Counted from the first letter of the stretch, positions 3,165 to 60,027 are shown. The stretch: DNA of 64,000 bases from an uncultured Bdellovibrionales bacterium (GCA_964483635.1 CAZABS010000001.1:16692-80691); one strand, 5' to 3'. Numbers and translations: made by a program. Notes: generated by a model from the sequence alone, not told the origin.

Positions 3165-3182
3165 CAGGTTCTTCCTGGTGAA

Positions 3183-3386: not shown

Positions 3387-3467
3387 CGGGTGCAGACCTC
3401 CAGACGCACCACTTTACACCGCCGTGGTGCACTCGTAAACTAAAAGCTCTTTCTTCGAGGACTGGTC

Positions 3468-8026: not shown

Positions 8027-8062
8027 CTGACCTTTTTTTGTGATAAAGTGTGACTCCTCGCA

Positions 8063-9729: not shown

Positions 9730-9790
9730 CCATCCCCTCACTGTAGCGCCAGTCGAGGGGGAAACCCCTCGACTCATCGAGGAGGTAATC

Positions 9791-10522: not shown

Positions 10523-10611
10523 GCCATGTCCTTAGTCAAGCCGTGCAGGGCGGCTTGATCAAGTCGATCGAAAGAAGAAATCCGTGACTCATCGCCACGG
10601 ATCAAAATACT

Positions 10612-11178: not shown

Positions 11179-11316
11179 GTCGGTCTCCTTCTCAGTGATG
11201 AAAGTACCGACTTCATCTTGGAACGCAGTGCGCTTCTTGCCATGACGCGGAAAGGTGCTCGGGGTGCACCTCTCCCACGGCTATCTCACTCTCGTGAGAT
11301 TCCCTAGTCTGAGTGA

Positions 11317-12498: not shown

Positions 12499-12541
12499 GT
12501 TGTGGAAGCGTCACGGGAAACAAGAGAGGGAGGAGTGAACC

Positions 12542-13054
12542 ATGGGATACGTTGCAGCGACCACCGTCTTGTCGCATTGGAACCATCGCATCGACGGAAT
12601 GCAGCAATCCGCCAATGAGTTCTACACCGAGGTCGAGAGGGTGCTCGCGGTCCAGAACGTCGACAAGATCAAAGCCGAGCGGGTCAATCTCTCAGAAGGT
12701 GGCATCTTCACCGGGAAGCGCGAGTATCTCCAGATTAGAAGAGGTGAGCAGCTCTTCCATGTGTGCGCCGCTCCCTTTGGGAACGGTTTCTTCATCTCCT
12801 CCTGGCTCGGCGTGAAGGAGTCCGGCTTCTGGGCCTGGCTTGCCATGCTGCCCGGTATCGGCTTCTTCGTGCAGCGCTTCCTCAAGCCCCTCACGTACTA
12901 CAAGATCGATACCTCGCTCATGTTTCAGTCGATCACCCATGGCGCCATCATGGAAGTAGTGGACGCTCTCACTAAAGCCAAGGGACTGCGCTCCCTCACC
13001 GAGAATGAACGCAAGCCCGTGATGCGCGACTTCTTCGCCAATATCGGCGGGTAG
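12542..13054 (+). CDS. Hypothetical protein (170 aa) between the two ATPase paralogs
   Basis: ORF with possible hydrophobic segments; no motif recognised. Confidence 0.35.
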   Translation: MGYVAATTVLSHWNHRIDGMQQSANEFYTEVERVLAVQNVDKIKAERVNLSEGGIFTGKREYLQIRRGEQLFHVCAAPFGNGFFISSWLGVKESGFWAWLAMLPGIGFFVQRFLKPLTYYKIDTSLMFQSITHGAIMEVVDALTKAKGLRSLTENERKPVMRDFFANIGG

Positions 13055-13063
13055 AAGGCTCCC

Positions 13064-16000
13064 ATGATTCCGACCCTGGCTGAAGCCGTTACGGCGAGCT
13101 TCTACGCTTGGGAGATTCGGGGGAGAGGCTGGTGGCTCTCGGACTATCCGGTGGTCCTGGAGCCACCCTTTCGCCACTGCTTCATGCTGCCGTCTCTCGC
13201 CTCACCCCGCCACATCATTGACGACGGGAAGCGCCCAACCTTCCTGAGTTCGCTGGTCGAAGGAGTCAAGGACACCCTGGTCGGGAAGTCTGCGATCTCA
13301 CAAACGAATGAGGAGCCATTCGAGGAGCCCGAACCAGCAAGGGCCGAGAGGGCGAACTCGCGCGTGTCGCTCCGGCTCACAGTTCCGGTCGATTTCCGGC
13401 TGCGGCCTGAGGCCATCGCGCAGTTTCTCCGATCGCTTTCGACCACACTCTCACCTGTTGCCTTCGAGATCGTTGGACGCGCTGGAAAGGTCGCGATCCA
13501 AGTCACCTGTGCCGAGGTTGATGCCGCCCTCGTCGGAAGCCAGCTTGAAGCCTCAATCCCCGAAGCAGTGGTGCTTCATGATGATGATCTTCTTTCTGAA
13601 GCATGGGACGAGGAGGCGAAACATCTCGTGGTCGATTTCGGACTCTCGCATGAGTTCTTCCTCCCGCTCGGATCAGTGAGCGTTGGACTCGATCCGTTCG
13701 TCACTCTCATCCCAGCCCTGGCGGCGTCTAAAGAAGGCGAGATCCTTGTCTACCAGGTGCTCTTCGAGGGTGTACGCAATCCGTGGTCCTCGGCGATTAG
13801 GGAGGCGCTCGATGACGGAACAGGCGGCTCCATCATGGCGGATGCACCTGAGTTCCTGCCGCTCTCTCGGGAGAAGCTCCGTACTCCGCTTCATGCCGTC
13901 TCGCTGCGCGTCGCCGCTCAAGCAAGGTCGACGTCACGAGCCTGGGACTTGGTACGTTTGACCGGAGCGTTCATCAGGCAGTGCGGACGACCGGGATCGA
14001 ATGAACTCCTCCCCTTGGAGAACACGGACTTTCCGGATGAACTGCATGCAAGCTCCGTCTTGTGGCGCGAGACCTATCGCTCAGGGATGCTCCTCTCAGG
14101 AGAAGAGCTCGGTCTCTTCGTCCATCTCCCTGACGCGTCGGTGAAGCATCCGGGACTCATCCGGAGTATCGAGCGTACCAAAGCTCTTCCCAATGAAGCT
14201 CGGGGAAGGGAGTTCGTCCTCGGCGAAAACGTCCACCGCGGAGAGCGGATGGCCGCGACCATCGGCGAAGCCGAGCGGCTTTCGCACACCTGGATCATCG
14301 GCGCTTCGGGAGCCGGGAAGTCAACCCTGCTTCAGAGTCTCATCCTTCAGGATCTCGAACGAGGAAATGGGATTGTGGTGCTTGATCCGCATGGCGATCT
14401 CATCGACGACGTTCTCGCGCGGATGCCGAAGGAGCGCATTGACGACGTCATCCTCTTCGATCCGAGTGATACCGAACATCCGATCGGCTTCAATGTCCTC
14501 TCTGCGGGAAGCGAAATCGAACGCACTCTCTTAGCTTCCGATCTGGTCGGAGTGTTTCGACGGCTCTCGACGTCCTGGGGCGATCAGATGTCGTCGGTCT
14601 TGGGAAATGCGGTCCTCGCCATCCTTGAAAGTGAGCGAGGCGGGACACTGCTCGATCTACGTCACTTTCTCGTTGACGATCGATTCCGGAGAGAGTTTCT
14701 CGGGACAGTCGACGACGATGAGATCCGCTTCTTCTGGGAACGTGAGTACCCACTCATTGGTTCACGCTCGATCGGACCGATCCTCACGAGGCTTGATACC
14801 TTTCTCCGGCCCAAGGTGATCCGGCATATCGTGGGACAACGGGATGGAAAGCTCGATCTCGGAAGAGTCCTCTCGAAGCGCCAGGTGCTCCTCGCCAAGC
14901 TCTCGCATGGAGCGATCGGCGAGGAGAACAGTTACCTCATGGGAAGTCTCATCGTCGGGAAGCTCCTGGAGCTTGCCCTCGCGCGCCAGCAGCTCGCCAA
15001 GGAAGAACGCGCCCCATTCTTCCTCTATGCCGACGAATTCCAGCATTTCCTGACGCCTACGGTCGAGACGCTTCTTTCCGGAGCAAGGAAGTACGCTCTC
15101 GGCGTGACCCTGGCTCATCAGACCCTTGGTCAGCTCGCCCAAGCGCCGAAAGTTCTCTCAGCTCTCTCAGGGAATGCCTACACCCGCATTGCATTCCGGA
15201 CGAGTGAGGAAGATGCGCGGAGAGTAGCTGAAGGGTTCTCCTTCTTCGAAGCTTCGGACCTCGTCAGACTCCGGCGAGGCGAAGCCATTGTCCGTATGGG
15301 TTCGTCGGAGAACGACTTCAACCTGAAGACACTACCGCCGAAGCTGATTGCGTCCAATGAACGAGGTAACCGGCTAGCGCGTCTCTCGCGCGAGCGCTAT
15401 GGAATACCGGTAGCCGAAGTACGCGAGGCGCTCGCCAATGCTCGTGAGCCGATTCGTTCGTCCGAGGACGCGGTTCCGCAAGCCACAGCAGAGGAAACGC
15501 CGCCTGCTCCGACACCGATGAGCATCGAGCGGAAGCCGCTCGCACGACGCAAGGTGCTCGCTGACACTCCGCCGGAACCTCTCGGCCACGGAGGTCAGGA
15601 ACACAAGTATCTCCAGCATCTCGTGAAGCGCCTGGCTGAGGAGCGAGGCTTTCGAGCCATCATCGAAGACGACGCTGGCGAAGGAAAAACCGATGTCGTC
15701 TTGAAGAAAGACACGCTCACTATCGGTTGTGAGATCTCGGTGACGACCGATGTCGAGCATGAACTCGGGAACCTCCGGAAGTGCCTTTCGGCTGGATTCG
15801 GGGGGATTGTCGCGATCGTCCCAGACAAGCGGCGCCGCGAGAAGTTGGCGAAGCGAGCTGCCGAGGAAGCGATTGCCGCTCGGGTTATCTCACCCGAGGA
15901 GATCGTGAGCTTCCTCGATGAAGTGGCGGTCGGCTCCGCGACTGCCGAATCAACCGTACGCGGCTACAAGGTCAAGGTGAAGCGGCAGGCGATGAGTCAG

Positions 16001-16072
16001 GGTGACCTCGCCGGCAGGCGCTCGGCTGTGGCCGAGGTGATCGCGCGGTCAATCGGGCGGAGCGAGGGTTGA
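13064..16072 (+). CDS. Large (1002 aa) FtsK/HerA/T4CP-superfamily ATPase with a ~370-aa unknown N-terminal domain and a C-terminal YraN/Hjc-like PD-(D/E)xK nuclease-like tail
   Basis: IGASGAGKSTLL, VVLDPHGDL, FFLYADEFQHF and TLAHQTLGQL are paralogous to the 393-aa ATPase. The C-terminus (ERGFRAIIEDDAGEGKTDVVLKKDTLTIGCEISVT) follows the E...G-x-D-hhh...hhh-E-h-(K/S) layout of YraN/Hjc-like nucleases. Confidence 0.7.
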   Translation: MIPTLAEAVTASFYAWEIRGRGWWLSDYPVVLEPPFRHCFMLPSLASPRHIIDDGKRPTFLSSLVEGVKDTLVGKSAISQTNEEPFEEPEPARAERANSRVSLRLTVPVDFRLRPEAIAQFLRSLSTTLSPVAFEIVGRAGKVAIQVTCAEVDAALVGSQLEASIPEAVVLHDDDLLSEAWDEEAKHLVVDFGLSHEFFLPLGSVSVGLDPFVTLIPALAASKEGEILVYQVLFEGVRNPWSSAIREALDDGTGGSIMADAPEFLPLSREKLRTPLHAVSLRVAAQARSTSRAWDLVRLTGAFIRQCGRPGSNELLPLENTDFPDELHASSVLWRETYRSGMLLSGEELGLFVHLPDASVKHPGLIRSIERTKALPNEARGREFVLGENVHRGERMAATIGEAERLSHTWIIGASGAGKSTLLQSLILQDLERGNGIVVLDPHGDLIDDVLARMPKERIDDVILFDPSDTEHPIGFNVLSAGSEIERTLLASDLVGVFRRLSTSWGDQMSSVLGNAVLAILESERGGTLLDLRHFLVDDRFRREFLGTVDDDEIRFFWEREYPLIGSRSIGPILTRLDTFLRPKVIRHIVGQRDGKLDLGRVLSKRQVLLAKLSHGAIGEENSYLMGSLIVGKLLELALARQQLAKEERAPFFLYADEFQHFLTPTVETLLSGARKYALGVTLAHQTLGQLAQAPKVLSALSGNAYTRIAFRTSEEDARRVAEGFSFFEASDLVRLRRGEAIVRMGSSENDFNLKTLPPKLIASNERGNRLARLSRERYGIPVAEVREALANAREPIRSSEDAVPQATAEETPPAPTPMSIERKPLARRKVLADTPPEPLGHGGQEHKYLQHLVKRLAEERGFRAIIEDDAGEGKTDVVLKKDTLTIGCEISVTTDVEHELGNLRKCLSAGFGGIVAIVPDKRRREKLAKRAAEEAIAARVISPEEIVSFLDEVAVGSATAESTVRGYKVKVKRQAMSQGDLAGRRSAVAEVIARSIGRSEG

Positions 16073-16170: not shown

Positions 16171-19100
16171 CTATTGAACGTACGTACGAAGGAAGTATCC
16201 GTAACCCGCGTTATGCCATGTCCCCGCAGGTGGAAGTCGTTCGAAGCGCGTAAGGTATGTGCCCCCCTGTGGTCCAACGCCACCCGCCAGCCCGGGTTGG
16301 GTGGCCACATTCGTCTCATCTGCTCGGAACCCAACGAGGAGGTGCTGACCAGCAGTTACCGCCAATCCATCACCCGGCAAGTGAATGGTCGTCCATGGAA
16401 CATTCATGAAGCCGGATGGGCTGATGTATTGCGACGTATTAGGCGGGAAACTGAGGAACGGAGTCGATGTCGTTACGAGCGACGATGTGGCTGGCACGTC
16501 GAATCCTGGGCCCGGAATGCCGTAGAAACTGACGGTCACGCTTCCAGTCGACGAGACCGTCGAACCCGTCAATATTTTCACGTCGATCTGCTTGAGCTGC
16601 CCGCTATGACCAACCTGGAACGCCTGTGCGATCTCTGTACCGTCAAACTTGTATGTCCCCGTCGTCACGTCAAAACCAACATTGAAGCCCTGCGCTATAT
16701 AGGCGGTTTCAGAGGGTGATGGTGAGTAGTTGAAATCCACCGCAAGAGGCGCAGGTGATCCACTGAGCGTCACGATCCAAGCTTCCGTCTGTCCGCTTGG
16801 ATTCAATCCCCAACCGACGATAGTCCGGCCGTCATCTGAAATACCCGTCGCCGCCGCCAGGAACCACCCCGCGAGACTGACGCCGTGATCGACTTCCAGA
16901 ACGTCTTTCAGACGACGTACGCCAATGCCCTCGATCCACATGAAGGCTTCGATACCAGCCGGCGTGCCCGGAGCACTTCCCTCTCCGACGACGACCTTGC
17001 CGTCGGCGGAAACGCCGTAGGCGATGCTTTGAGTATGTCCACTGGCGAGTCCCAATCCTTGCATCCCGCCCGCTGCAGTCCAGCGGAAGGCTTCGATCGA
17101 ACTCAGCCCGCTTCTGCTCCATCCAACGACGGTGTTGCCGTCAGCAGAGACGCCGTATGCCGTTGCATCATAGCCGCCGCCGGGGAGTTCGCCTAGAGAT
17201 TGCATACCGCCAGCCAGAGTCCAGCGAAACGCCTCGCTTCCCAGCGCAGTAAGCCCCGCGCCAACCACAATCCTCCCGTCTCTCGATACGGCACGGGCCT
17301 TACTAGAGAAACCTCCACCACTGAGATCGCCCAAGCCTTGCATGCCAGCGTCCTCAGTCCAACGGAAAGCCTCACTGATGCCCGTGTATCCCACCACGGC
17401 TTTGCCGTCGGCGGATACGCCATACGCCTCGCTATATGGATCGCCTCCGACAACGAGATAACCCAGGCCCTGCATGCCACCGCTCTCGGTCCAACGGAAA
17501 GCTTCAAGCCCTGAGCCTCTGTTTCCTCGTCCTACGACGGTCTTTCCATCCGACGATACGGCGTATGCCACTGTGTCGAAATACGCGCCACTGAGTTGCC
17601 CTAGTCCTTGCATGCCACCGCTTTTCGTCCAACGAAAGGCTTCGTTCCTTCGGCCATCGATTTCGCTTTCGCCCACGACCGTTTGACCGTCGCTTGAAAC
17701 CCCGAAAGCCCGGCTAAACACATTCCCTCCGGGCAAGTCGCCGAGTCCCGTGAATACTGCGATCTTCGGTATGCCAACTCCTGGCGGAGTCAACATAAAT
17801 CCGCGCGCCTGCCCATTGAGGCGACCGACTCCCACGATGTGGCCGACATTGTTGATCGCAGCCGCGCTATCGAGCAGCCATCCACTGCCTACGTCGATCC
17901 GCGTGTTGAGCTCGATCATCGTGCCGTCTTGCCAAACGAAGGCGCCGCCACGTACCGCATTCCCATCAACGATCCCCGTGTATCCAACTACCTGACCGAC
18001 GTTGTTGATCCCGTAGGCATAGCTTCCATAGCGAGTCGCACCAGCGAGCGAATTGATATCGCGCGTGACGCCGTTCTCCCAAAGGAAGGCGTGCTGGTAG
18101 TCGCAGCCGGTGGCCGCGTCCGTCGTCGATCGCGCATACCCCACTACTTGGCCGCGCTCGTTGATGGCGGTCGGGACGATGTCGGCACCGGCTACCAATG
18201 GGGTGAGCTTGCTTACCACTCCGTTGCGGAAGATAAAGCCGGTGATTCCGTCGAATCCATAGACACATCCGAATGGAATGAACTGCGAGCCGAATCCGAC
18301 CACGTTGCCCCCGCTGTTGACGGCGGTCGCGCTTCCAACTGGAATGAGGGGCGAGAGGTCGCTGAGGTCGGTGACGCTCCCACCATGAAAAACGAAAGCG
18401 TGGTCGCGACCCGTCGTCGTTGACGTAAGGGAGCCAGCGATATGACCAGCGTTGCTGATGCTCGCAGCTTCCGCGTGACCATCTGGATTGATGCGTAGGT
18501 CTGACATCGCACCGTTAACGTACAAGAACGGGCGCCACGCCTGATACACCGGTGTTGTTGTCATGACGTGCGATGACCCGACAACCTGACCACTGTTGTT
18601 GATGCTCGTTGCCATGGTTCCACTATTCGGGGATTCGAACCCAAGCTCTCCGAGGTCGAGGAGTATTCCTCCGCTCCAGAGAAAGGCTCTGCTTCCTCCG
18701 TTCAATATGTAACTGCCAACGACTTGCCCTCCGTCGTTGATTGAAGCCGGAGTGACGTCGCCCAAATCGGTGACGGTATAGCGCGACGGGATCACAAGAG
18801 GAGGTGGTACGACCGCATCGACCGTGACCGACCGTGTCGTCGTTCGCGCGCTGCCGCTGTTGTCGGTGACGGTGAGCGTTATGGTGTAGGTTCCAGGGCT
18901 CCCGTAGTACACGTCATGCGATGGCAGTGCGGTGTAAGTACCCTCGCCCTTTCCGGCATCCCAGACGTAGCTGACGATGGATCCATCAGGATCAGTGCTC
19001 CCGCTTGCATCGAGGTGTACTGCCTGATTTGCACTGATGGTCGACGGGATAGCCGTAAACGATGCGACAGGTGGGTGGTTGACGGTGATCGTTCGCGTGA

Positions 19101-20280
19101 ACGGATACGAAGTGGCACCACGGTCGTCGGTGACCCGCAGGGTGACCGCCTTGAGACCGGGGGACGTGTATGCGAACGCGATCGGCGCCGAGGAGGTGGT
19201 GCTGAACGGACCACCTTCACCGAGATCCCATCCATAGCTCTTGATGGTCCCGTTTCCGTCTGGGTCGGAACTTCCCGACGGGTCGAAACTCACCTCCTCG
19301 CCGACGTTCACCGTAAACGTGTTTGCGGATCCTGCACTCACCGAGAAGGAGGCGATGGGGGGTAGATTTGCGTGGCTACACCGAGCGTTGGTCAGAGCAA
19401 GAATGGATGAAGCGATGTTCTCGTAGACACGTTGCTCCACTACGCTCGGGTTGAGATACTCGTCTCCCGGAAACAGGTACGCCTCTAAGAACCCATGCCG
19501 CCAAGAGTCTGCCACCTTGAGTCCGTAAAAGTCCAGCCATGGATCGGTGTAAGGATCCTCTGTGTTTGCTCGCAAGGAAGGAGCTAGGAATTTGATTACC
19601 CGCTTGAGTGAGGCGTTGAAGATCACTTGGTCATCCGGGGTTCCGAGGGGCATACCGTCACCAATGCGAAGGTGAGGCACGACCGACCTCGAGATCCGCC
19701 AGTCAGGACTGGCAACAGCAACGATTGCAATCGCCGACTTGTCTGATCCGGGGATGCGATCGACAGCTGGATTCACAAAGTAGTTTCCTTGTGAGTGCGC
19801 CACCACAACAACAGTGCGTCCGGCGTTGATGAGCTCGATGTACTTGGTCTTATGATCATTAATAACTTGTGCGGTTTCTATTGGTGGAACTGCCAAGGCG
19901 TCCGTGATGAGATCAAGAACCTCGCTCAGTCGCCCGGATTGGATTGCCTGCAGCGATCGAATGATTCCCCATGGAGACGCCAGGCTGAAACCTTCCTGCT
20001 TCCCTACCTCCTGAATGTCAGAAATCAGATTATCTTTGGGGTTGTAAGCGATAACGGAGAAGTCAAGTCGGCTGGAATCCACTCCGAGATCGGCACGTTC
20101 GTCTACCCACGCCTTGAACCGCGCTTCGAGCTCGTCTCGTGTTTTCTCGGCATCGTGTCTTCTGTTAGCCACACCATTGCCGAACACAACATTCGTCACA
20201 CCGCATCCGGCAGGGACCACCTGAGCCGAGACCGAACCCAAGAGCGTTGTGAGGACAACCAACAGCACCAGTCGTAGCAT
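16171..20280 (-). CDS. Giant secreted multidomain protein: lipase/esterase alpha/beta-hydrolase, PKD-like domains and tandem HAF-family extracellular repeats
   Basis: Signal peptide MLRLVLLVVLTTLLGSVSAQ. Nucleophile elbow VVAHSQGN (GxSxG). PKD-like PDGSIVSYVWDAGKGEG and PDGNGTIKSYGWDLGEG. At least 5 tandem ~45-aa repeats EAFRWT..GGMQGLG......AYGVSADG..VVG, with earlier HAFLW/GAFVW-type units (HAF repeat family). Confidence 0.8.
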   Translation of the reverse strand: MLRLVLLVVLTTLLGSVSAQVVPAGCGVTNVVFGNGVANRRHDAEKTRDELEARFKAWVDERADLGVDSSRLDFSVIAYNPKDNLISDIQEVGKQEGFSLASPWGIIRSLQAIQSGRLSEVLDLITDALAVPPIETAQVINDHKTKYIELINAGRTVVVVAHSQGNYFVNPAVDRIPGSDKSAIAIVAVASPDWRISRSVVPHLRIGDGMPLGTPDDQVIFNASLKRVIKFLAPSLRANTEDPYTDPWLDFYGLKVADSWRHGFLEAYLFPGDEYLNPSVVEQRVYENIASSILALTNARCSHANLPPIASFSVSAGSANTFTVNVGEEVSFDPSGSSDPDGNGTIKSYGWDLGEGGPFSTTSSAPIAFAYTSPGLKAVTLRVTDDRGATSYPFTRTITVNHPPVASFTAIPSTISANQAVHLDASGSTDPDGSIVSYVWDAGKGEGTYTALPSHDVYYGSPGTYTITLTVTDNSGSARTTTRSVTVDAVVPPPLVIPSRYTVTDLGDVTPASINDGGQVVGSYILNGGSRAFLWSGGILLDLGELGFESPNSGTMATSINNSGQVVGSSHVMTTTPVYQAWRPFLYVNGAMSDLRINPDGHAEAASISNAGHIAGSLTSTTTGRDHAFVFHGGSVTDLSDLSPLIPVGSATAVNSGGNVVGFGSQFIPFGCVYGFDGITGFIFRNGVVSKLTPLVAGADIVPTAINERGQVVGYARSTTDAATGCDYQHAFLWENGVTRDINSLAGATRYGSYAYGINNVGQVVGYTGIVDGNAVRGGAFVWQDGTMIELNTRIDVGSGWLLDSAAAINNVGHIVGVGRLNGQARGFMLTPPGVGIPKIAVFTGLGDLPGGNVFSRAFGVSSDGQTVVGESEIDGRRNEAFRWTKSGGMQGLGQLSGAYFDTVAYAVSSDGKTVVGRGNRGSGLEAFRWTESGGMQGLGYLVVGGDPYSEAYGVSADGKAVVGYTGISEAFRWTEDAGMQGLGDLSGGGFSSKARAVSRDGRIVVGAGLTALGSEAFRWTLAGGMQSLGELPGGGYDATAYGVSADGNTVVGWSRSGLSSIEAFRWTAAGGMQGLGLASGHTQSIAYGVSADGKVVVGEGSAPGTPAGIEAFMWIEGIGVRRLKDVLEVDHGVSLAGWFLAAATGISDDGRTIVGWGLNPSGQTEAWIVTLSGSPAPLAVDFNYSPSPSETAYIAQGFNVGFDVTTGTYKFDGTEIAQAFQVGHSGQLKQIDVKILTGSTVSSTGSVTVSFYGIPGPGFDVPATSSLVTTSTPFLSFPPNTSQYISPSGFMNVPWTTIHLPGDGLAVTAGQHLLVGFRADETNVATQPGLAGGVGPQGGTYLTRFERLPPAGTWHNAGYGYFLRTYVQ

Positions 20281-20301
20281 CTGACCAACCCCCGCGGTTT
20301 T

Positions 20302-21168
20302 CTACGGCAAATCGGGATCAAAACCAACACAGTTTTGTTTGCTTTCTGACGGAGGCAGGCCGGCAGGGTCGCCAATCACCTGGCCAGCGAACAGATCGTC
20401 GAAGCGCTGGGATGCGTCAATGCGATTGGATGTGTTGAAGAAGATTGATTCCATCCAGTCATCTACCCCTATCCACCGCGGACCACTGACAACGTAGCGC
20501 AAACACCGGCGGGCCATTGCGGTCAAACGCCTCGCGGACACAACAGCGGGATCAGTGACTGCCGTAGCGCCGTCAACCATAAGAATGCTCTGGTCCGCCT
20601 TGCTTGATTGCATGAGGGCGGACCTGAGCTTGGGAGTATCCGGGTAAGTAAGAGCGATCAGTCTCTCCACATCGTCCCGCACCCCGTTCCCGTTCGAGTC
20701 AATCCCTGCGACCGTTGCTTTACCTGCCTCACCTGGATCAGGCGGGAGTCCGACCGCTGCCTCGGGAATGTCGGCGCTAACAGCGATTGCCGGTGTGAGC
20801 GACACCCGCGAAGGATTCGCAAATTTGAGCACGATCGGCGTGACGATCTGTCCGGCGATGATCGTATTGCCCGGTACTGACACATTGACGTAGGGCTTGC
20901 CTTGACTGGTCGTTCCCGCAGCGTTGGCCAGGGTCACTCCATTGGGGAGCCCGCTCACCGCAAGCTGCACCGGTGCGTTCACGGTGAGGGGTGAGGTGTT
21001 CTTGAGCGTGACCGTCGTATCGTAGGTATTGGTCGTCCGATTGAGGACGAAACCAGTCTTGGTGATCGCGAAGAGATTGGTCGCATCGGAGACGACGGCT
21101 AAGGCTGGTGAGCCGATCGCCAACCCGGCCAACGCTAGTACCAAGGTGAGGAAGCGACGAGAGGTCAT
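20302..21168 (-). CDS. Secreted hypothetical protein (signal peptide)
   Basis: MTSRRFLTLVLALAGLAIGSPALA signal peptide. Probably co-transcribed with the flanking surface-protein genes. Confidence 0.5.
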   Translation of the reverse strand: MTSRRFLTLVLALAGLAIGSPALAVVSDATNLFAITKTGFVLNRTTNTYDTTVTLKNTSPLTVNAPVQLAVSGLPNGVTLANAAGTTSQGKPYVNVSVPGNTIIAGQIVTPIVLKFANPSRVSLTPAIAVSADIPEAAVGLPPDPGEAGKATVAGIDSNGNGVRDDVERLIALTYPDTPKLRSALMQSSKADQSILMVDGATAVTDPAVVSARRLTAMARRCLRYVVSGPRWIGVDDWMESIFFNTSNRIDASQRFDDLFAGQVIGDPAGLPPSESKQNCVGFDPDLP

Positions 21169-21176
21169 AGGCGTTA

Positions 21177-21821
21177 TCAGACAGGGTTAAGCGAGGTGGG
21201 CTTGCGGAACCGCCGGAGCCCAATGAGCACAACGCTCAAGATGAAGAGACTCGTGACAATGAGAATGAGCGTGTTCGGCTCCGGGACAGCGTTTGAGCCT
21301 CCACCCAAGCGGACGGTATCCGAATAGATCGAGAGGGGATCTGTCTCGCCCACGTTGTAGAGGAGAAGCGCATTGGCTCCCGTTGGATCACTGGTTGTTG
21401 GTACCGGCATCCCGCTGCTGTCGAGGAGGAAGAACGAGAAGGCATCAGGAAAGGAGGTCGGATCAGCCGGGCTCCCTGTGGTATCGAAGGTGAAGGAGAG
21501 CGAGCCGCCAAAGGTGAAGCCTTGGAGGTACTCGTTGAAGAACTCACTGTCACCGAGCGTGACGGTCCCGGGGAGCGCCCCGCTCACATCTCCGGTTGGA
21601 GTCGATGTTCCGAGGGTTCCATCACTCGTGAAATCGGAGAGCGTTACCGTATTGGCCGGCGTCCCTCCATCGAGAAAATCGAAAGCCAGGCTCCCCGTCG
21701 TACCCGAAAGTGCCGAGGTGTCGACGGTGACGTGAGTCGGGGCAGCGTACGAAGTGGTTGGCAGAGTAGCGACGAGGAAGGCGATCACACGGATCATCCT
21801 TCCCAAGGTATGGGTATACAT
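21177..21821 (-). CDS. PEP-CTERM sorting-signal protein (putative exosortase substrate)
   Basis: N-terminal signal peptide (MIRVIAFLVATLPTTSYA). The C-terminus VPEPNTLILIVTSLFILSVVLIGLRRFRK is VPEP followed by a TM helix and basic tail, i.e. the PEP-CTERM architecture. Start is at the internal Met; the ORF track extends to 21863. Confidence 0.7.
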   Translation of the reverse strand: MYTHTLGRMIRVIAFLVATLPTTSYAAPTHVTVDTSALSGTTGSLAFDFLDGGTPANTVTLSDFTSDGTLGTSTPTGDVSGALPGTVTLGDSEFFNEYLQGFTFGGSLSFTFDTTGSPADPTSFPDAFSFFLLDSSGMPVPTTSDPTGANALLLYNVGETDPLSIYSDTVRLGGGSNAVPEPNTLILIVTSLFILSVVLIGLRRFRKPTSLNPV

Positions 21822-22162
21822 GATTTCTCCCTCGCGGCCGCCTGAGTGTCTGCGGTGCTTCAATGACTTACCGGTATCCGTCAGCTTTCAAAAGAAAGCA
21901 ACGAATGTACCTAGATAAAATATAGAAAGAAAACAAGAAACTGTCGAGAGAGGACTTAGTGACGTGTCAAGTATCTCGACACTTCTTCTTTGATAGTTGA
22001 GGCTGACAGTGGGAGATTGATGGCGACTGATGCGACGAGGCGCCACAGCGGACAGGGCGTCGACTCTAGGCTTCTCGCTCCTCAGATGAATAGCCGCACT
22101 GTCGGGCACATCGCTTCGCCGTTAGACTCATCGCGGAGTTCACCAAGAACGAGGAGGAGCCC

Positions 22163-23059: not shown

Positions 23060-23613
23060 GCACGACGGTGTGGCAGTTGAGGAGCACCCAACGCTTGCGA
23101 ACTTCGGTTCAACGGGGAGCTGTGATTCTCACGACGCTCCTCGTCGGCTGTGCGGCGCCGCCCTATCGCTGCGTCGACCGCTCATCGATTCCCGAGGTAC
23201 CGACCGAGATCAGTGTTGGCGACGAAAGAACCTTCTTTGTCGACGCCAAGCTTCCCTGGAATCGGAGCGGTGTACGAGTGAGCGCCGGACAGATGTACCA
23301 GATATCGGTCGGCGCATCGGATCCACCCTGGATGGATTGGTTTATTCCCGCTACACCAGAGTCCGGTTGGTCACCGTGGTGGCAGCCACTCGGCGAGGTT
23401 CTCCGCTCTGCGGCTCGGGTACCAACCGCCAAGATGTCCGCGCTCGTTTGCAGCGCCGGTCAGGAAGATGGGAATGCTCTTCCCGTTGGAGAGATCGACG
23501 GCCGCCCGTTCCCATCAAGTGGCGAGCTCCTCTGCTTTGCCAATGACTGGGCGGGGCACTATGACAATAACCGGGGGTGTGTTCCCGTGACCATGCGCCG
23601 ATTGGAACCGTGA
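23056..23613 (+). CDS. Putative lipoprotein, hypothetical
   Basis: Lipobox-like LLVGC after an N-terminal hydrophobic region. The start overlaps the preceding stop (ATGA). Confidence 0.45.
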   Translation: MSTTVWQLRSTQRLRTSVQRGAVILTTLLVGCAAPPYRCVDRSSIPEVPTEISVGDERTFFVDAKLPWNRSGVRVSAGQMYQISVGASDPPWMDWFIPATPESGWSPWWQPLGEVLRSAARVPTAKMSALVCSAGQEDGNALPVGEIDGRPFPSSGELLCFANDWAGHYDNNRGCVPVTMRRLEP

Positions 23614-23623
23614 AGCGCGAACA

Positions 23624-24688
23624 CTACGGGAGTTCTTCCTTGTGGGTGTACCGAACGTCGGGGGCTCTCCCGAGGTTGATGCTCACCCCGCGTAGATAGG
23701 CGGACTTCGACGAGCGCCGTTCGCCGGCTGCGTCAGTCCATGCGTATTCGATCCGATCGAGTGCTGCATCGGTTGATTGTCCGGTGCTGATCGAAAAGCC
23801 ACATTGTCCTTCAGCACAAAGCTCCAGCTCGTTCCGCTGACCATCCTCTTCGAGATCAATGGCTTCGAGGACGAGACGAAACTGGACGGCCAGCATGTCG
23901 TGATTTTCTGTAATGAAGGGGGAGATCTCAGATTCAACGAGGCGTCCGAGCCGCATAGCATAGCGTGCAGCATCAGTCGCAACCTCCGCTTGAACGGCTG
24001 CATAGGCGGCTTCGGCGATCTGATGACGATCGATGTCTGGCATATCGGCGCGCAGCGCATCAAGGAGCGGTTTGAGATCGGAGTAGATATGGAGGGACAC
24101 CTTCCGCGCGACGCAATCTTGTTCCAGATTGACGGCCAGGCGGGTCTTCTCCTTGTCTCTATAGAACCCGCCGTCTTTCGTTACGAAATGAATGTCATAG
24201 CGGCTCCCGAGATCGAGGACTGCTTCCCAGATGAGGGAGTCCTTGAACTGCTGATTCTTCAGACTGTTCGGCGGAGTCTCGTCGTTGACACGCCCGAGCG
24301 CAGACTGAGCGTGCGCCAGCGTCATCGGCACGCGAACGAAAAGTGGAGCGAGCTCCTTAAGCCGCGTTCCGATGGCTTTCGTGATTCCGTCCTCGAAGGG
24401 TGCCTCGTACGGCCGATGGGCTCCCAGAATGAGACGCAGTTCGCGAAACCGGCGCCGGATTTCGTCAGCCGCTTCAAGCCCGGCTTTGAGGATCTGCTTT
24501 TCGATCTCTCCTTCAACCACTTCCGGCAGGCCAATCCGTCCCTGGTGTCGATGGATGACATGGAGAAGTGCTGGCCCGAGCCCGCCACGGAGAAGCAGGG
24601 TCTCGCGCCAAATATTCGTGTCCAGGACGACGCAGGGTTTTCGATCAATCGATTCCATACGGTATCGCAGCCGCCTTCCGTAGACCAA
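23624..24688 (-). CDS. PIN-like domain protein (N-terminal VVLDTNIW motif), hypothetical defence-associated
   Basis: N-terminus KPCVVLDTNIWRETLL resembles the first acidic strand of PIN/PIN-like (DUF4935-type) domains. The remaining ~300 aa have no recognised motif. An alternative start MESIDRK lies near 24658. Confidence 0.4.
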   Translation of the reverse strand: MVYGRRLRYRMESIDRKPCVVLDTNIWRETLLLRGGLGPALLHVIHRHQGRIGLPEVVEGEIEKQILKAGLEAADEIRRRFRELRLILGAHRPYEAPFEDGITKAIGTRLKELAPLFVRVPMTLAHAQSALGRVNDETPPNSLKNQQFKDSLIWEAVLDLGSRYDIHFVTKDGGFYRDKEKTRLAVNLEQDCVARKVSLHIYSDLKPLLDALRADMPDIDRHQIAEAAYAAVQAEVATDAARYAMRLGRLVESEISPFITENHDMLAVQFRLVLEAIDLEEDGQRNELELCAEGQCGFSISTGQSTDAALDRIEYAWTDAAGERRSSKSAYLRGVSINLGRAPDVRYTHKEELP

Positions 24689-24987
24689 TCGCCATCTCTA
24701 CCCCATTTGTTCCAATCGCGCTAGGCTATGAACGTGGAGATCGAAAAATGCCATCGATACATTGTTGGAAGCGTCTCGACGAAGCGTTAGGTGATCTGGT
24801 CATCCTTGGCGAAGCGCGCTAGCCGTTGGAAGACCCAGTCGATCTCCCAACCTTGCTGTCGCGACCAACGCCCCACAGCATGTCCCGCGATACGGAGCGC
24901 CACTTTGAGAATCAATGTGCGTCACCGTCCTTGAGGGAATCGATAACTCCAAGCCTCTCATCGTCAAAGTGATTTGCGCCAACACCT

Positions 24988-26280
24988 ATGCACGGTAAAG
25001 ATCCTCACCAAGCGCTCAAGACGACCGTCCTCGCGAAAGCCCAATCTGCTCATGCCGATCTGGTACTCGTGAAACAGCAGTGGGGCAGGGAGGACGTTGC
25101 TTTCAGTGTCCACGCGCATCCAAACTCCTTTAGTAGCTCGGGCATTCAACCTACCGATTTTCTCGAAGTGCTCGGCTTCGAGAGGAGTCCCTGTGTTCAC
25201 CTTGGCGAGTGCTTTGTACGATGGGTAGCCGAGGGCTTTGATCTGACTTCATTTGCCCAGAACTTCGATCAGGCGCTCGCCGAACTGCGGGAGGCGGAAC
25301 GTCATCTTGAGCCGTGCGGTATTGTTCTCAGGCAGTCAGAGGGGTGGGGTTTCTACTTCGGGAAGCCTTCCCAAGAAGTGCATCGTTACTACGGCATGTG
25401 TGGGGATGGGCACACGGGATCCAAAGTTACTTCGCTCAAACAAACTGAAGACGAGAGCTTTCTCTTCCGATTCTCCTGGCTCGACACCGGGCACGAGAAG
25501 GGGTGGATCACCCACTATCGTCCGAAGCATCCACCTTTGTCATCGGAGATGCGAGGTGTCTTTTCATTCCTGGGCTTCGCAGAGTTCGACGGGTGCCCAG
25601 AGTTTGAGTTCGAACCATGCTATTGGCGATCGATCGAGAAGCGCGGTGACGGCATCATGTTTGATCCCGCCACGGATTATGCCCACCGCTCCTTCGATGC
25701 CCACGCGCAGGAGTTTTCACAGGGCGTGGAGAAGCTTTTGGCAGCCAGTACGACGGTCAAAGCGTCTGGTCTCTCTTTCCTGGGAGCGTCATCGACGTTC
25801 GTCGCGATCGAACCGACCGCCGTGAGCGTGGTTTCATCGAGCGTACGGGATGCCCGCGTCGATTCCGATTTCGATGTGGCCATCTCCTTTGCCGGAACAG
25901 AGCGAAAGTATGCCGAGGCACTTGCCAAGTTTGTGCGAGACGCTGGTTTCGAGGTCTTCTACGATAACTTCTACCCGGAGCAGCTCTGGGGCAAGAACTT
26001 GATTGACTTGTTCGACCAAATCTACCGAAAGCAATCCCGCTACTGCGTCATCTTCGTCTCAAACGAATACAACGACCGGATCTGGACCAACCACGAGCGT
26101 AAGAGCGCCCAGGCGCGAGCCATCAAGGAGAAGGGGGACGAATACATCCTTCCGATCAAAGTAGACGAAGCGGAGCTTACAGGCATGCCTCCGACTGTCG
26201 GATATCTGCCGATCGCTCTTGGCATCAAGAAGATTGCGGAACTGCTCGTGAAGAAACTGAGTACAACGTCGAGGCGATAG
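24988..26280 (+). CDS. Unknown N-terminal domain fused to a C-terminal TIR-like domain
   Basis: C-terminal ~140 aa: DVAISFAGTERKYAEALAKFVRDAGFEVFYDNF...SRYCVIFVSNEYNDRIWTNHE...YILPIKVDEAEL follows the TIR/TIR_2 pattern (DVFISY(A/S)GEDR ... F.D ... vviSpnYl.S.WC..El). The ~290-aa N-terminal region is unrecognised. Confidence 0.55.
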   Translation: MHGKDPHQALKTTVLAKAQSAHADLVLVKQQWGREDVAFSVHAHPNSFSSSGIQPTDFLEVLGFERSPCVHLGECFVRWVAEGFDLTSFAQNFDQALAELREAERHLEPCGIVLRQSEGWGFYFGKPSQEVHRYYGMCGDGHTGSKVTSLKQTEDESFLFRFSWLDTGHEKGWITHYRPKHPPLSSEMRGVFSFLGFAEFDGCPEFEFEPCYWRSIEKRGDGIMFDPATDYAHRSFDAHAQEFSQGVEKLLAASTTVKASGLSFLGASSTFVAIEPTAVSVVSSSVRDARVDSDFDVAISFAGTERKYAEALAKFVRDAGFEVFYDNFYPEQLWGKNLIDLFDQIYRKQSRYCVIFVSNEYNDRIWTNHERKSAQARAIKEKGDEYILPIKVDEAELTGMPPTVGYLPIALGIKKIAELLVKKLSTTSRR

Positions 26281-26382
26281 GCGCTTTTCCTTTGGCGGCG
26301 ACAATATACCGGTGGACGTGTGTTGCAGGGTAGTCGCTGCTCGGCCGTTGTGGCACCGCGAGCTGCGTATGGTCGTGCGCAA

Positions 26383-27075
26383 TCAACTCTCTCCACCCCC
26401 AACCGCCTGTTCTCGTCTTTGGCGCAGCATTTCAGCCTCGCGCGCGCGATCCTCTGCGTTGAACACGTCGACGCTGAGTCTCCGAAAACCCGTACTGAAC
26501 GAATGAACGTCCACCTGCAACTTCTCCAGGCTCTGTGCGATCGCGTACAAATGCGGTTTACCGAGCTGATAGTCTCGCTTCTGCTCGGTCATATCAACGG
26601 TTGCCGGGTGCCGGTATACCTCCCCGGACGCGCTGCGGTAGCTCAGGTCGATCGAAAGTACCGCATCGAGCTTCCCCTCGCCGTCCTTTGCCATGTCGGT
26701 GTAGAGCGAGAAGCGCTCCTCACCCGGACCGAGATATCCGAGTCCGGTCGTGAAGAACGATGAAGCTGTGAAATCCTTGAGGAGCGATTCCGCCGGAGCG
26801 CCACCCTTCACGACCTGAGGGGTGAATGCTACATCGAAGGCTGGACCGAGGCCGATATTGCGAATCCGGAGGCGAACAATATTTATCGCTATGTCCAGCG
26901 ACTGAGCCGTAATTTCCACACGCGGTTCTGTCTGTACCCTCCGCAGCTCTCTCGTTTCGGACACCAGCCGCGCCGTGAGCGCAGCATAGATGATGGTTGC
27001 AAGCGTAACGGCGCCAGTGAAGACGACGTTGAGGCTGCCGGAGTTCGTATTGAGAAACGTCAAGAGATCACTCAT
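26383..27075 (-). CDS. Single-pass membrane protein, hypothetical
   Basis: N-terminal TM helix VVFTGAVTLATIIYAALTARLV. Convergent with the TIR gene, and the last gene before the GC drop. Confidence 0.4.
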   Translation of the reverse strand: MSDLLTFLNTNSGSLNVVFTGAVTLATIIYAALTARLVSETRELRRVQTEPRVEITAQSLDIAINIVRLRIRNIGLGPAFDVAFTPQVVKGGAPAESLLKDFTASSFFTTGLGYLGPGEERFSLYTDMAKDGEGKLDAVLSIDLSYRSASGEVYRHPATVDMTEQKRDYQLGKPHLYAIAQSLEKLQVDVHSFSTGFRRLSVDVFNAEDRAREAEMLRQRREQAVGGGES

Positions 27076-27506
27076 TTGTCAGTCCTCAAGTTGTGCCAAG
27101 TCTGTGGACGCATGCGATGTCTCCACCGAGTACTGTGCGCACTTGGGACCTCTTCGCGTCATGCACGCAGCCCGTGAACACGCGAGCATGAATGCATGGA
27201 TATTAGCCAAGACAAGGTGGAACGATTTCGCGAGCGCTTGAAGCACGAGTTCGGCGAGGAGCTATCGTTCGAGGAGGCGAGCAAGCGCTACATGAAGTTC
27301 CTTCATCTCTTCTGGATACTTTCTTACCGGCCACCGAAGTCGGGGGATGCTCCCTCCGAGCCTCCTCCTCCACCATGGCTTTGACGGCTCGCACCTTATC
27401 CAGTAACTTGAGAAGAGCAGGATCCTGACGCTCATACCTGGTTCGAACATCGTTGAGGAATGCCGACACGAACAAGAATAGATTGGGAACGCGTTTTGAT
27501 TCCATC

Positions 27507-27822: not shown

Positions 27823-27906
27823 GCTGTGGTGGCGGAATTGGTATACGCGCTAGCCTTAGGAGCTAGTACCCGCAAGGGTTTGAGAGTTCGAGTCTCTCCC
27901 ACAGCA
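27823..27906 (+). tRNA. tRNA-Leu (anticodon UAG), class II with a long variable arm
   Basis: Acceptor GCTGTGG/CCACAGC. D-arm GCGGAATTGGTATACGCGC is nearly identical to the E. coli tRNA-Leu D-arm. Anticodon stem CTAGC/GCTAG with loop CTTAGGA gives anticodon TAG. Variable arm ACCCGCAAGGGTT. T-arm GAGAGTTCGAGTCTCTC. Discriminator A; CCA is not encoded. Confidence 0.9.
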
Positions 27907-27956
27907 CACGAAAGCACCCTGATACTCCGAATAGCAAGGAGAGAGCAGGCAAGAAT

Positions 27957-57590: not shown

Positions 57591-57672
57591 AGAAAACCGT
57601 GTACCTATAAACTCACCCAGACAAAATAAATGTTAAGTAGCTTCAGAGTAACCTCTTTTTTGCTCTTTTGTC

Positions 57673-57775
57673 AATGAATTCTCTCCTTGCCAAGCCTTCT
57701 TACTGTGTGCTAACCTCGGAGCCAAGTGTCAAAGAAGTGCCTTACCAATCCAACAATTCAACCGCGGAGGCAATC
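57673..57775 (+). promoter_or_regulatory. Conserved ~100-nt 5' leader (copy 1): 28-nt identical core AATGAATTCTCTCCTTGCCAAGCCTTCT plus partially conserved downstream blocks, ending at an RBS GGAGG
   Basis: Direct comparison with 59193–59286. The core is identical, then gctaacctcgga vs gctagcctcgaa and ccttaccaatccaac vs ccttaccaaccaacc. Confidence 0.5.
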
Positions 57776-59146
57776 ATGAAGATCAAGCAGAATCGTCTGG
57801 TCATCATTCTTGGAACCTCAGACTTCAGCACCTCAATCGCAGGGCAACTGAACCAATCCCAGAAGGCGCGCGGGGAACCCGAAGTCATCGCCGCGCTTGT
57901 CGCACAGACGAATGGCTCCCTCAGCCAGGTAGAAAACTTCCTCGCGGCCCATCCGGAGACCAAGGTCATCGTGCTTCAAGCCCGTGTCTTCAAAGATCAC
58001 CTTCGGGATACAGCGAGGCACTTTATCAGCCGGAGGCTACAGGTTATCGTGATCATCCTCCCGACCGACGATCAACCACTGAAACATCTCGAGAAGCAAT
58101 ACCATTCACTCGGAGTGTCCGTAATTGGAGAGAATCGCGCCAACTTAATGGCACTTCTTGAGTCAACTATCCTGCGTCTCCTTAATCCATCAGCCGTAAC
58201 CCAGAGGAGGGAATTTGCCCGCCCACAGCCTGAAGATCATGACGCTGGTGCAGCGCCAAAGCGACTATACCGCAGGGCTTCTCCTCAAGATATCCCTCAG
58301 GTTCAAAGCTACGTAAACCTCCTCGGATTCGACGATGTCGACTTGGGAAATACATCCTCTCTGGATCTGGATGAGACAGCTCAAGAACCTCCCCCGCCCA
58401 CTTTGCCGTCAGGATCCCACACCGAGCGCCAAGTACACGTATCTTGGGCTCTTTCCTCTCGCGTACCGACACGCACTGCCTCTCAGCAAACGACCGCCCC
58501 GAGGAAAACTCCAACTATATCAGTGTCGAATACTTCGATCGACGCGGCCGAAGCCACAACCTCGGATCGTGAAAATACTTGTACGCGCATCGGGAGGATT
58601 GAGCATCTTGAGAGCGAACAAGATCAACTCCGGAGAAAACTAGAGGAGCTCCAGGAACAGTTCACCCAAGAACAAACCGCCATTCGCTCGGCCTTGGAAC
58701 AAGCTGGCGATGCCCTTCTTTTCGCTGTGGCGGCACTGCGGAAAATTCCCCTGACGGTTCGTCCGCTCGAAACAACGACTGCACCAACTGGGCTCTGCGC
58801 ACCCCAGTTGGAGAAGTCTACCGTAACACCGAGTGAGGGGTCTCCGGCTACCTCAGCCACCCTCCCTCTCTCCAGAGAAACTCCGGGGGAAAATCGTGCC
58901 GAAGATACTGAGGAAAAGAGTCAGTTGTCTCGTGATTCTATCTTCTCTCCTCGAGAACGAGAACTTCTCCAGATCTTGCGGAGCAACAATAGCAACATCG
59001 TCCATTACAAGGAGCTCGTGGAGCGGTTTGTGAGTCAAGGAAATATAGCCATGCTCGTAAGCAAGATCCGAGCCAGGGCCAAAAACAATTCACTCCCCGA
59101 TCCCATCAAGACATATCCTGGGATTGGATTATCGGCTCAGCGCTAG
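57776..59146 (+). CDS. Putative transcriptional regulator with a C-terminal OmpR/PhoB-type winged-helix domain
   Basis: C-terminus FSPRERELLQILRSNNSNIVHYKELVERF...MLVSKIRARAKN matches the trans_reg_C pattern (L(T/S)P+E.ELL..L......V.SR..L...VW.........V.I.RLRKKL). The N-terminus is only weakly receiver-like, followed by a long low-complexity middle. Start set at the ATG after the GGAGG RBS. Confidence 0.5.
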   Translation: MKIKQNRLVIILGTSDFSTSIAGQLNQSQKARGEPEVIAALVAQTNGSLSQVENFLAAHPETKVIVLQARVFKDHLRDTARHFISRRLQVIVIILPTDDQPLKHLEKQYHSLGVSVIGENRANLMALLESTILRLLNPSAVTQRREFARPQPEDHDAGAAPKRLYRRASPQDIPQVQSYVNLLGFDDVDLGNTSSLDLDETAQEPPPPTLPSGSHTERQVHVSWALSSRVPTRTASQQTTAPRKTPTISVSNTSIDAAEATTSDRENTCTRIGRIEHLESEQDQLRRKLEELQEQFTQEQTAIRSALEQAGDALLFAVAALRKIPLTVRPLETTTAPTGLCAPQLEKSTVTPSEGSPATSATLPLSRETPGENRAEDTEEKSQLSRDSIFSPRERELLQILRSNNSNIVHYKELVERFVSQGNIAMLVSKIRARAKNNSLPDPIKTYPGIGLSAQR

Positions 59147-59192: not shown

Positions 59193-59286
59193 AATGAATT
59201 CTCTCCTTGCCAAGCCTTCTCGCGCCATGCTAGCCTCGAAACAAAGGAGATCCTTACCAACCAACCCACTACGAGAAAGGAATGGT
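59193..59286 (+). promoter_or_regulatory. Conserved 5' leader (copy 2), preceded by a T8 run
   Basis: See copy 1; the core is at 59193–59220. Confidence 0.5.
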
Positions 59287-60027
59287 ATGACTTCCATCAT
59301 CCTCTATGGAAGCAAGAGAGAGACTCAATCATTACACCTGGCACTCACGCATATCGGTGTCGGAGCTATCCTCACTGATTCAGTCTCCCCAAGCATCGCC
59401 CGCCGCTACTTTGATCGATGGCCAAAACCGGCTGGCATGGTGATATTCCCCGGGGTACTCTCCACTGACTTGCCAGACACACTCACTCCGTTGCAGGATT
59501 GTCCTGGAAACATCATCCTCCTCACCCACCTCCAAGGGCAGCGCTCGCCAGAGGGAGTCCGCAGTCTAGGCGTCGCTTATTGGTTCGTTAATCTTCGAAT
59601 TACCGAGCGAATTGCTCTTGAACCAACCCTCATCACAAGTGCTGTCGCCAAAGCAATAAGTTCGAATGATGCTGTCCAGCCGATTTTCCTGTCAGATATC
59701 CCTCCAAAGCATAAGAAGGTTTCTTTCGAGCAGCCAACTCAGCCCAGAAAAGGATTCGAAGCAATCCTCGTAGCCGGAAGAGATTGCATACCAGACTCTC
59801 CCGGTCAAGCCAAAGTGCTCCGATTCCTGCAAAACAAGAGGAATTGGAATCTTCCGTTTTCAGCGAAAACGGTGGCTATAGAGACCCGGATGGTCACCCA
59901 CCAAGCATCAACTCACCTGCATCAGCTGATGGGTACTTTGCCGCCAGGGTGGCTCGAAACTGCTACATACGGTTTCTATACCTTCAACCCAGAAGGAGCT
60001 CATGCGGTATCTTTGGCAGATTTCTAG
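59287..60027 (+). CDS. Hypothetical protein, weak N-terminal paralogue of the upstream regulator
   Basis: MTSIILYGSKRETQSLHLALTHIGVGAIL vs MKIKQNRLVIILGTSDFSTSIAGQL. No DNA-binding domain recognised. Confidence 0.4.
   Translation: MTSIILYGSKRETQSLHLALTHIGVGAILTDSVSPSIARRYFDRWPKPAGMVIFPGVLSTDLPDTLTPLQDCPGNIILLTHLQGQRSPEGVRSLGVAYWFVNLRITERIALEPTLITSAVAKAISSNDAVQPIFLSDIPPKHKKVSFEQPTQPRKGFEAILVAGRDCIPDSPGQAKVLRFLQNKRNWNLPFSAKTVAIETRMVTHQASTHLHQLMGTLPPGWLETATYGFYTFNPEGAHAVSLADF

Follow-up and report, generated by a model that had tools for sequence, protein, structure and literature searches.

Gene content of the locus

The stretch of DNA analysed here (the window) comprises 64,000 nucleotides from an uncultured Bdellovibrionales bacterium (GCA_964483635.1 CAZABS010000001.1:16692-80691), and between its positions 23624 and 27075 an open reading frame (ORF) scan found three ORFs on strands -, + and - (Table 1). 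ORF A encodes a protein with a PIN-like N-terminus, ORF B a protein ending in a TIR domain and ORF C a protein with one hydrophobic segment. ORFs A and B are divergent with a gap of 329 bp, and ORFs B and C are convergent with a gap of 102 bp. A first-pass annotation, generated from the sequence alone, had placed an uncharacterised defence locus here, and what it observed was right in every particular, including the coordinates and the orientation of the three ORFs. Its proposal of a new TIR-based defence candidate stood for ORF B as a single gene and fell for a multi-gene system. ORF B, a putative stand-alone sensor-TIR protein, is the main feature of the locus.

Table 1. Coordinates of the features at the locus, counted from the first nucleotide of the window; residue numbers refer to the encoded protein.
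Feature	Position	Strand	Description
ORF A	23624..24658	-	344-amino-acid DUF4935/PIN_12 predicted nuclease, C-terminal half uncharacterised; independent neighbour
Intergenic region ORF A-ORF B	24659..24987	.	329 bp, divergent; homology break relative to locus L009 at ~24647
ORF B	24988..26280	+	430-amino-acid putative stand-alone sensor-TIR protein; main feature
N-domain repeat 1	25000..25323	+	residues 5-112; beta3-alpha-beta2-alpha; invariant or near-invariant D5, H7, H42, C69, C75
N-domain repeat 2	25405..25773	+	residues 140-262; invariant D140, H142, H176, C203, C211, equivalent to repeat 1
Linker	25774..25866	+	residues 263-293; variable, low-confidence
TIR domain	25867..26268	+	residues 294-427; matches to Pfam TIR_2 and TIR-structure profiles
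WxxxE motif	W366 26083-26085; catalytic E370 26095-26097	+	from alignment to AbTir E208
ORF C	26383..27075	-	230-amino-acid single-pass membrane protein, transmembrane residues ~14-36 (26968-27036); independent neighbour
Recombinase-like gene, truncated 3' remnant	27203..27469	-	at the GC-content junction
tRNA-Leu	27823..27907	+	ARAGORN; Rfam 59 bits; just past the island end

The TIR domain of ORF B

Residues 297-394 of ORF B matched the Pfam family TIR_2 (PF13676; E = 1.2e-11, 45.6 bits against a cutoff of 28), in agreement with the C-terminal TIR domain called by the first-pass annotation, and the motif string it had quoted is present in the protein. A profile of 34 family members matched the TIR structures 7uxr, 7uwg/7uxu, 8g83, 4lzp and 3h16 with E values from 1e-10 to 5e-7; in the PDB, 7uxr is labelled 'TIR domain protein', 7uwg 'Molecular chaperone Tir', 8g83 'NAD(+) hydrolase AbTIR' and 3h16 'TIR protein'. 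W366 and E370, which form a WxxxE motif, are invariant in the 34 homologues, and the W-T-N-H-E of ORF B (W366...E370) aligns with the W-T-N-Y-E of AbTir (W204/E208), so that the catalytic glutamate that was looked for is present as the equivalent of AbTir E208. In AbTir, an E208A substitution in this motif abolishes nicotinamide adenine dinucleotide (NAD+) hydrolase (NADase) activity (PMC10641520). On the basis of its sequence, the TIR domain of ORF B looks catalytically competent, and it aligns with AbTir-type NADases over ~130 residues that include the same WxxxE motif. The two proteins differ at the N-terminus, which in ORF B is a 260-residue duplicated Cys/His-rich domain and in AbTir is a coiled-coil.

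A duplicated N-terminal domain

The first-pass annotation could not assign the N-terminal domain (N-domain) of ORF B, and our searches likewise returned no family match in Pfam, NCBIfam, PADLOC or PHROG. An AlphaFold2 model of the N-terminal 267 residues, made with a 34-sequence alignment, was confident, with a predicted local distance difference test score (pLDDT) of 91.3 and a predicted template modelling score of 0.88. The chain forms two repeats of the same topology, the first with strands at residues 11-19, 23-31, 37-45, 65-69 and 73-80 and helices at 55-61 and 86-110, and the second with strands at residues 146-154, 158-166, 171-179, 198-203 and 209-217 and helices at 186-194 and 227-258. 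Profile-profile alignment of the two halves with hhalign (probability 96%, E = 4.9e-9) marks a true internal duplication, and pairs D5-x-H7 with D140-x-H142, H42 with H176, C69 with C203 and C75 with C211. The ~260-residue N-domain is thus an internal duplication, a pseudo-dimer within one polypeptide, and each repeat probably holds one structural Zn site of the His2Cys2 type (predicted ligands H7/H42/C69/C75 and H142/H176/C203/C211). A flexible linker joins the N-domain to the TIR domain. It varies in length in the family alignment, and its residues 268-290 fall below a pLDDT of 50 when the whole protein is modelled.

The best fold matches of the N-domain were type III secretion system (T3SS) chaperones. 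Each half has the beta3-alpha-beta2-alpha arrangement of the T3SS chaperone/YbjN-like fold and superposes on the chaperones SicP (1jyo), STM2138 (3epu), SycN/YscB (1xkp) and AmyR (5fr7) over 81-92 residues at ~3 Å. The sensor domain has no convincing structural relative. Type III secretion chaperones work as dimers; the N-domain of ORF B carries two copies in one chain. No relatives of the N-domain outside the ORF B family were detectable in structure and sequence searches.

Distribution and domain shuffling of the ORF B family

Among the roughly one thousand homologues of ORF B, almost every one of the best 120 is full-length; most have ~430-450 amino acids, and they share 48-60% identity with ORF B at 89-100% coverage. 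An exhaustive phmmer search that compared the N-domain with 1.84 billion cluster representatives retrieved only 268 clusters (50% identity), 93 of them at E <= 1e-30, and most of the 268 are TIR fusions of ~430-450 amino acids. Other arrangements were found as well: one protein has the TIR domain first (P0286; residues 9-134) and the N-domain last (200-465), one joins the N-domain to a SEFIR-like TIR (P0325), one has an extra N-terminal extension of 360 residues (P0273), and one carries a CHAT caspase-like protease (P0274; residues 300-467) in place of the TIR domain. Because it has been recombined with alternative death effectors, and in either order, the N-domain resembles the sensor or regulatory modules found in conflict systems.

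Hosts of the family include Saccharibacteria, Magasanikbacteria and other Patescibacteria, Alpha- and Betaproteobacteria, Acidobacteriota, Chloroflexi/Dehalococcoidia, Planctomycetota (Brocadiaceae), Armatimonadota, Actinomycetes, Verrucomicrobia, Thermodesulfobacteriota and Acetothermia, a span of more than 10 phyla with the candidate phyla radiation (CPR) included. The family is small yet phylogenetically broad. A viral contig in IMG/VR carries one member. The plasmid and isolated-phage GenBank collections contained no full-length member, and there the TIR domain alone was found.

Genomic neighbourhood of ORF B homologues

Genomic contexts were collected from 8 metagenomic or genomic loci and a further 80 in GTDB species representatives, with flanks of up to 10 kb. 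Besides the window, 45 loci hold a full-length member of the ORF B family (44 after duplicate removal). No conserved neighbour was found within 4 kb of the homologues, and in an all-versus-all comparison no protein recurred beyond a handful of loci. A hidden small partner was also not found among ORFs of at least 35 amino acids within 1 kb of the 44 homologues; the largest shared group comprised four loci (L005, L035, L038, L045), and the L005 member, at least, encodes a Phage_integrase.

At 43 loci, a survey of the two closest genes on either side gave 136 neighbour proteins. These included seven tyrosine integrases (Phage_integrase) and two large serine recombinases, together with type I/III restriction-modification components, XhoI and DpnI nucleases, a CBASS cyclase, a patatin, E1-E2 proteins, AbiP2/DRT reverse transcriptases, Septu PtuA, SMC-like ATPases and PDC-S01. 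One homologue has SLFN, HNH, CBASS and HEPN-Toprim neighbours, and another has Shedu SduA_C and HEPN AbiV neighbours. At L002-L004 (6001-8639) and L053 the homologue is accompanied by an AAA_14/DUF4143 ATPase (PADLOC PDC-S01) inside a contractile-tail cluster, between the tube and the baseplate/spike genes. The pattern of neighbours is that of defence islands and prophage morons.

Comparison with known TIR systems

Like Thoeris, ORF B combines a bacterial TIR domain with a defence-island context. It differs from Thoeris in having neither a ThsA-like nor any other partner, in the fusion of its sensor to the TIR domain, and in lacking a conserved neighbour that could be a separate effector. The first-pass annotation had seen no canonical ThsA partner, and indeed no SIR2, SLOG or Macro domain was present in the flanking ORFs. 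Assignment to Thoeris or another multigene TIR system was rejected for want of a ThsA-like (SIR2/SLOG, Macro) or other conserved partner in the flanking ORFs and at the 44 loci; the PADLOC ThsB1 profile gave an insignificant match to ORF B (E = 0.0087, 13.6 bits).

The best PADLOC match was PDC-S66 (E = 5.8e-15) and the best PHROG match phrog_15646 (E = 2.4e-11), both of them single-gene TIR proteins with an N-terminal extension. Only positions 137-240 of 282 and 149-252 of 293 of these profiles aligned, and the N-terminal portions are unrelated to ORF B, so the architecture of ORF B is a different one. Membership of PDC-S66 was rejected, as the aligned segment covers only residues 283-390 of ORF B, its TIR part. 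Membership of RT-TIR or of NCBIfam retron-TIR was rejected on the same ground of a TIR-only match, retron-TIR scoring 37 bits against a cutoff of 600 bits. None of the papers searched describes the ORF B family, and the name PDC-S66 occurred in them only in genome surveys.

In its general plan, ORF B resembles the sensor-effector TIR fusions (retron/RT-TIR, TIR-NLR/Avs-like, TIR-SAVED and TIR-STING), in which a sensor and a TIR death effector share one chain, and the ORF B sensor has also been swapped onto CHAT. Its sensor, unlike theirs, is not a reverse transcriptase, STAND NTPase, SAVED or STING domain.

Proposed function of ORF B

We propose that the N-domain would act as a sensor and also as an autoinhibitory module that keeps the TIR domain switched off. 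The infection cue that it recognises would most likely be a phage protein or peptide, as the analogy to chaperone-like folds suggests. Upon recognition, the TIR domains may self-associate and complete a composite active site; TIR self-association is needed for active-site assembly in AbTir, SARM1 and plant TIRs. NAD+ would then be cleaved, and the infected cell would arrest or die (abortive infection). From sequence and context, ORF B is probably a single-gene sensor-TIR NADase of the abortive-infection type, and we lean towards regarding it as an anti-phage NADase.

The TIR domain could instead generate a signal, as in Thoeris, with ORF B producing a cyclic ADP-ribose (cADPR) isomer or related nucleotide for an effector encoded elsewhere. 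The structures closest to its TIR domain belong to the AbTir group, members of which are described as making cADPR isomers, and the weak ThsB1 match points the same way. Near none of the 44 loci, however, is there a SIR2/SLOG, Macro or other conserved partner; horizontal transfer of the gene by itself among more than 10 phyla is hard to square with an unlinked effector; and the N-domain is also fused to the CHAT protease, a terminal effector. We consider a signal generator unlikely, and NAD+ depletion the likelier output than second-messenger signalling, because no effector partner accompanies ORF B and the same sensor occurs on a terminal protease effector.

A role outside immunity has a similarly low probability. 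ORF B might be a secreted or injected toxin (e.g., one carried by a contractile injection system, for which the chaperone-like N-domain would be the adaptor for loading or secretion), a Tcp-like host-interaction factor or an NAD-RNA decapping enzyme. The homologue inside the sheath/tube/baseplate/PAAR cluster (L002-L004, L053) and the T3SS chaperones among the fold matches would suit injected cargo, and decapping of NAD-RNA has been described for TIR proteins (PMC10937652). The tail-cluster context, however, was seen in one of the 44 independent loci, where a PDC-S01-type ATPase accompanies the homologue in the manner of a prophage defence moron. The homologues have no conserved immunity-gene partner next to them, the hosts are free-living soil, water and CPR bacteria, and a Kyte-Doolittle scan, made without a signal-peptide predictor, showed no hydrophobic N-terminal segment in ORF B.

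Several points weigh against an abortive-infection NADase. The ORF B family is known from sequence, context and predicted models, and it has no full-length match to a PADLOC, NCBIfam or PHROG defence family, the matches (PDC-S66, RT-TIR, retron-TIR) being to the TIR part only. The defence-island association is expressed as raw counts over the 136 neighbour genes, without a statistical background, and the predicted clustering of the His and Cys residues is based on conservation and repeat equivalence. Related bacterial TIR domains can, moreover, make cADPR-isomer signals instead of simply depleting NAD+.

We tentatively suggest, as a possibility with less than even chances, that the N-domain is an undescribed Zn-stabilised intramolecular pseudo-dimer that binds a phage protein or peptide in the way that dimeric T3SS chaperones grip their effectors, and that it serves as a portable infection sensor coupled to TIR (in either order), to a SEFIR-like TIR or to CHAT. 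If this is true, the family would represent a new class of single-protein immune receptor in more than 10 bacterial phyla, CPR included. Single polypeptides that combine a sensor with a TIR domain are already known in bacterial immunity, and what is new here is the sensor domain and the single-gene architecture. If validated, ORF B would provide a new trigger-recognition module for TIR immunity and a compact one-gene system for the switching of TIR NADases.

Neighbouring genes ORF A and ORF C

The longest reading frame of ORF A (23624..24688, strand -) encodes 354 amino acids; homologues start at Met11, which gives the 344-amino-acid protein in Table 1. The PIN-like N-terminus reported by the first-pass annotation was borne out by a match to the full profile (1-172 of 172) of Pfam PIN_12 (PF16289; E = 2.5e-14, 54.4 bits against a cutoff of 32). 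The acidic PIN residues D13, E51, D140 and D162 are invariant in 24 homologues, and the 'VVLDTNIW' segment holds the first of them. With its full-profile match, length of ~350 amino acids, four acidic residues and uncharacterised C-terminal alpha/beta half, ORF A is an ordinary member of DUF4935/PIN_12, and nothing sets it apart. Forty homologues of ~340 amino acids were found, and relatives of ORF A adjoin a resolvase, VapBC and BrnTA toxin-antitoxin genes, and an SNF2 helicase with an MmeI-like methyltransferase. DUF4935 genes are typically monocistronic (PMC5499597).

ORF C contains one hydrophobic segment (residues ~14-36; Kyte-Doolittle > 1.6), as the earlier call of a single-pass membrane protein had it, and ORFs A and B contain none. 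It has no Pfam, NCBIfam or PADLOC family and matches a PHROG of unknown function (phrog_11802) over its full length (E = 8e-11); despite this match, isolated phage genomes contained no homologue. The 98 homologues define a family of ~230 amino acids with an N-terminal transmembrane helix, a beta-rich region with a conserved 'RNIG-GPA' and a charged tail. In 80 metagenomic loci (L101-L180) ORF C has no conserved neighbour and usually stands by itself, next to integron-integrase-like genes, RelE/ParE-like toxins or IS200-like transposases; one homologue adjoins a deaminase gene and PemK. ORF C may be a mobile cassette gene.

Independence of the three genes

The first-pass annotation had proposed that the three genes form one defence system, or that ORFs A and C are accessories of a TIR toxin, and a co-occurrence test set in advance went against both. 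Family hidden Markov models detected no PIN-family or ORF-C-family gene within 10 kb at any of the 45 loci with a full-length ORF B family member. The 80 metagenomic ORF-C loci (428 kb) held no PIN-family gene or ORF B family member, and three independent PIN-family contexts lacked both the ORF B and the ORF C family.

Related loci also show each flanking gene apart from the TIR gene. Locus L009 has 86% DNA identity to positions 23186-24647 of the window, that is, to the PIN gene and a convergent ORF of 185 amino acids downstream of it. The ORF A homologue there, the nearest relative of the PIN gene, is 88% identical at the amino-acid level and has a different upstream neighbour: the homology stops near the PIN start codon, and a gene for a 462-amino-acid protein follows. 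This protein (L009 561-1949) lies 12 bp upstream of the PIN gene on the same strand and has no Pfam or PADLOC match. As the gene sits where the window has the TIR gene, a variable slot is suggested. Loci L013 and L014 have 95% DNA identity to positions 26208-27469, with ORF C intact (96% amino-acid identity) and the TIR gene reduced to its last ~24 codons behind an in-frame stop and unrelated DNA. This unrelated DNA, in the region L013 1836-2169/L014 1285-2125, carries an IS630-type (DDE_3) transposase, and the TIR gene looks to have been lost or disrupted naturally there. The PIN gene and ORF C thus each persist where no intact TIR gene is present.

ORFs A, B and C are not an operon, because their strands alternate. 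A simple scan of the intergenic region between ORFs A and B detected no sigma-70 consensus promoter. ORF B is, with high confidence, a single-gene module and not part of a three-gene system, and the PIN_12 and single-pass membrane protein genes are separate single-gene modules that both also occur in mobile contexts. A three-gene system has in its favour that the genes are adjacent at the island edge and that all three families are found in mobile or defence-like contexts, and is made highly improbable by the three transcription units on alternating strands, the absence of co-occurrence, the L009 PIN gene without a TIR gene, the intact ORF C beside a mere TIR remnant in L013/L014 and the monocistronic habit of DUF4935 genes.

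An equally improbable arrangement is a two-gene module of the TIR gene and ORF C, with the membrane protein as co-effector or regulator, for which one ORF-C locus with a weak TIR-like ORF nearby (L167; E = 5.5e-5) and a short ORF-C homologue ~170 bp beyond an unrelated N-terminal-TIR protein in L067 could be cited, against the convergence of the two genes in the window, their mutual absence (B family at 0 of 80 ORF-C loci, ORF C at 0 of 45 B-family loci) and the intact ORF C where the TIR gene was lost. Outside the window lineage, L067 was the one place where a TIR gene and an ORF-C homologue stood side by side, and this case is outweighed by the negative co-occurrence results. This Caldilineaceae locus (6557-13069) encodes HsdR, a 403-amino-acid N-terminal-TIR protein with a C-terminal region of no known type, the 164-amino-acid ORF-C homologue and an ORF of 319 amino acids. 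Adjacency at an island edge is not proof of a system, and the PIN_12 and single-pass membrane protein genes should be annotated as independent cargo.

The island edge and other features of the window

The island edge seen by the first-pass annotation is a reasonable one, as the GC content drops near 27.5 kb from ~57% to ~45%, shortly before the tRNA-Leu gene. The truncated gene at this junction corresponds to the last 89 amino acids, with 90% identity, of an L013 protein of at least 279 amino acids, which has a weak, sub-threshold match to Zn_ribbon_recom. Homology to L013 and L014 ends at 27469 and 27467, respectively, and the right boundary at 27469 interrupts a gene; just beyond it lie a low-GC ORF of 121 amino acids and the tRNA-Leu gene. 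The intact serine recombinase at 3468-4964 is unrelated to the remnant, and self-BLAST found no direct repeats flanking the region. The GC junction may be a decayed integration junction beside the tRNA-Leu or an assembly chimera.

High GC content marks the first 27.5 kb of the window, which include an N6_N4 DNA methyltransferase and a large serine recombinase with Resolvase and Recombinase domains (2268-4964) as well as two HerA/TrwB-like ATPases (11317-16072), a content consistent with an integrative mobile element. The most plausible description of the region, which we hold with some confidence, is that it forms the cargo end of a mobile island of high GC content, with three separately transcribed and functionally independent accessory genes.

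Between the ATPase genes and ORF A lie an ORF of 1369 amino acids (16171-20280) with an N-terminal hydrophobic segment and internal repeats (self-similar over 16984-17643) and an ORF of 228 amino acids (21177-21863) with a PEP-CTERM-like end, both read by eye; by their look, these ORFs (16171-21863) do not resemble defence genes. Elsewhere in the window, a 61-bp direct repeat with 80% identity (57666-57726 and 59186-59246) is found at the starts of the adjacent ORFs 57668..59146 and 59194..60027.

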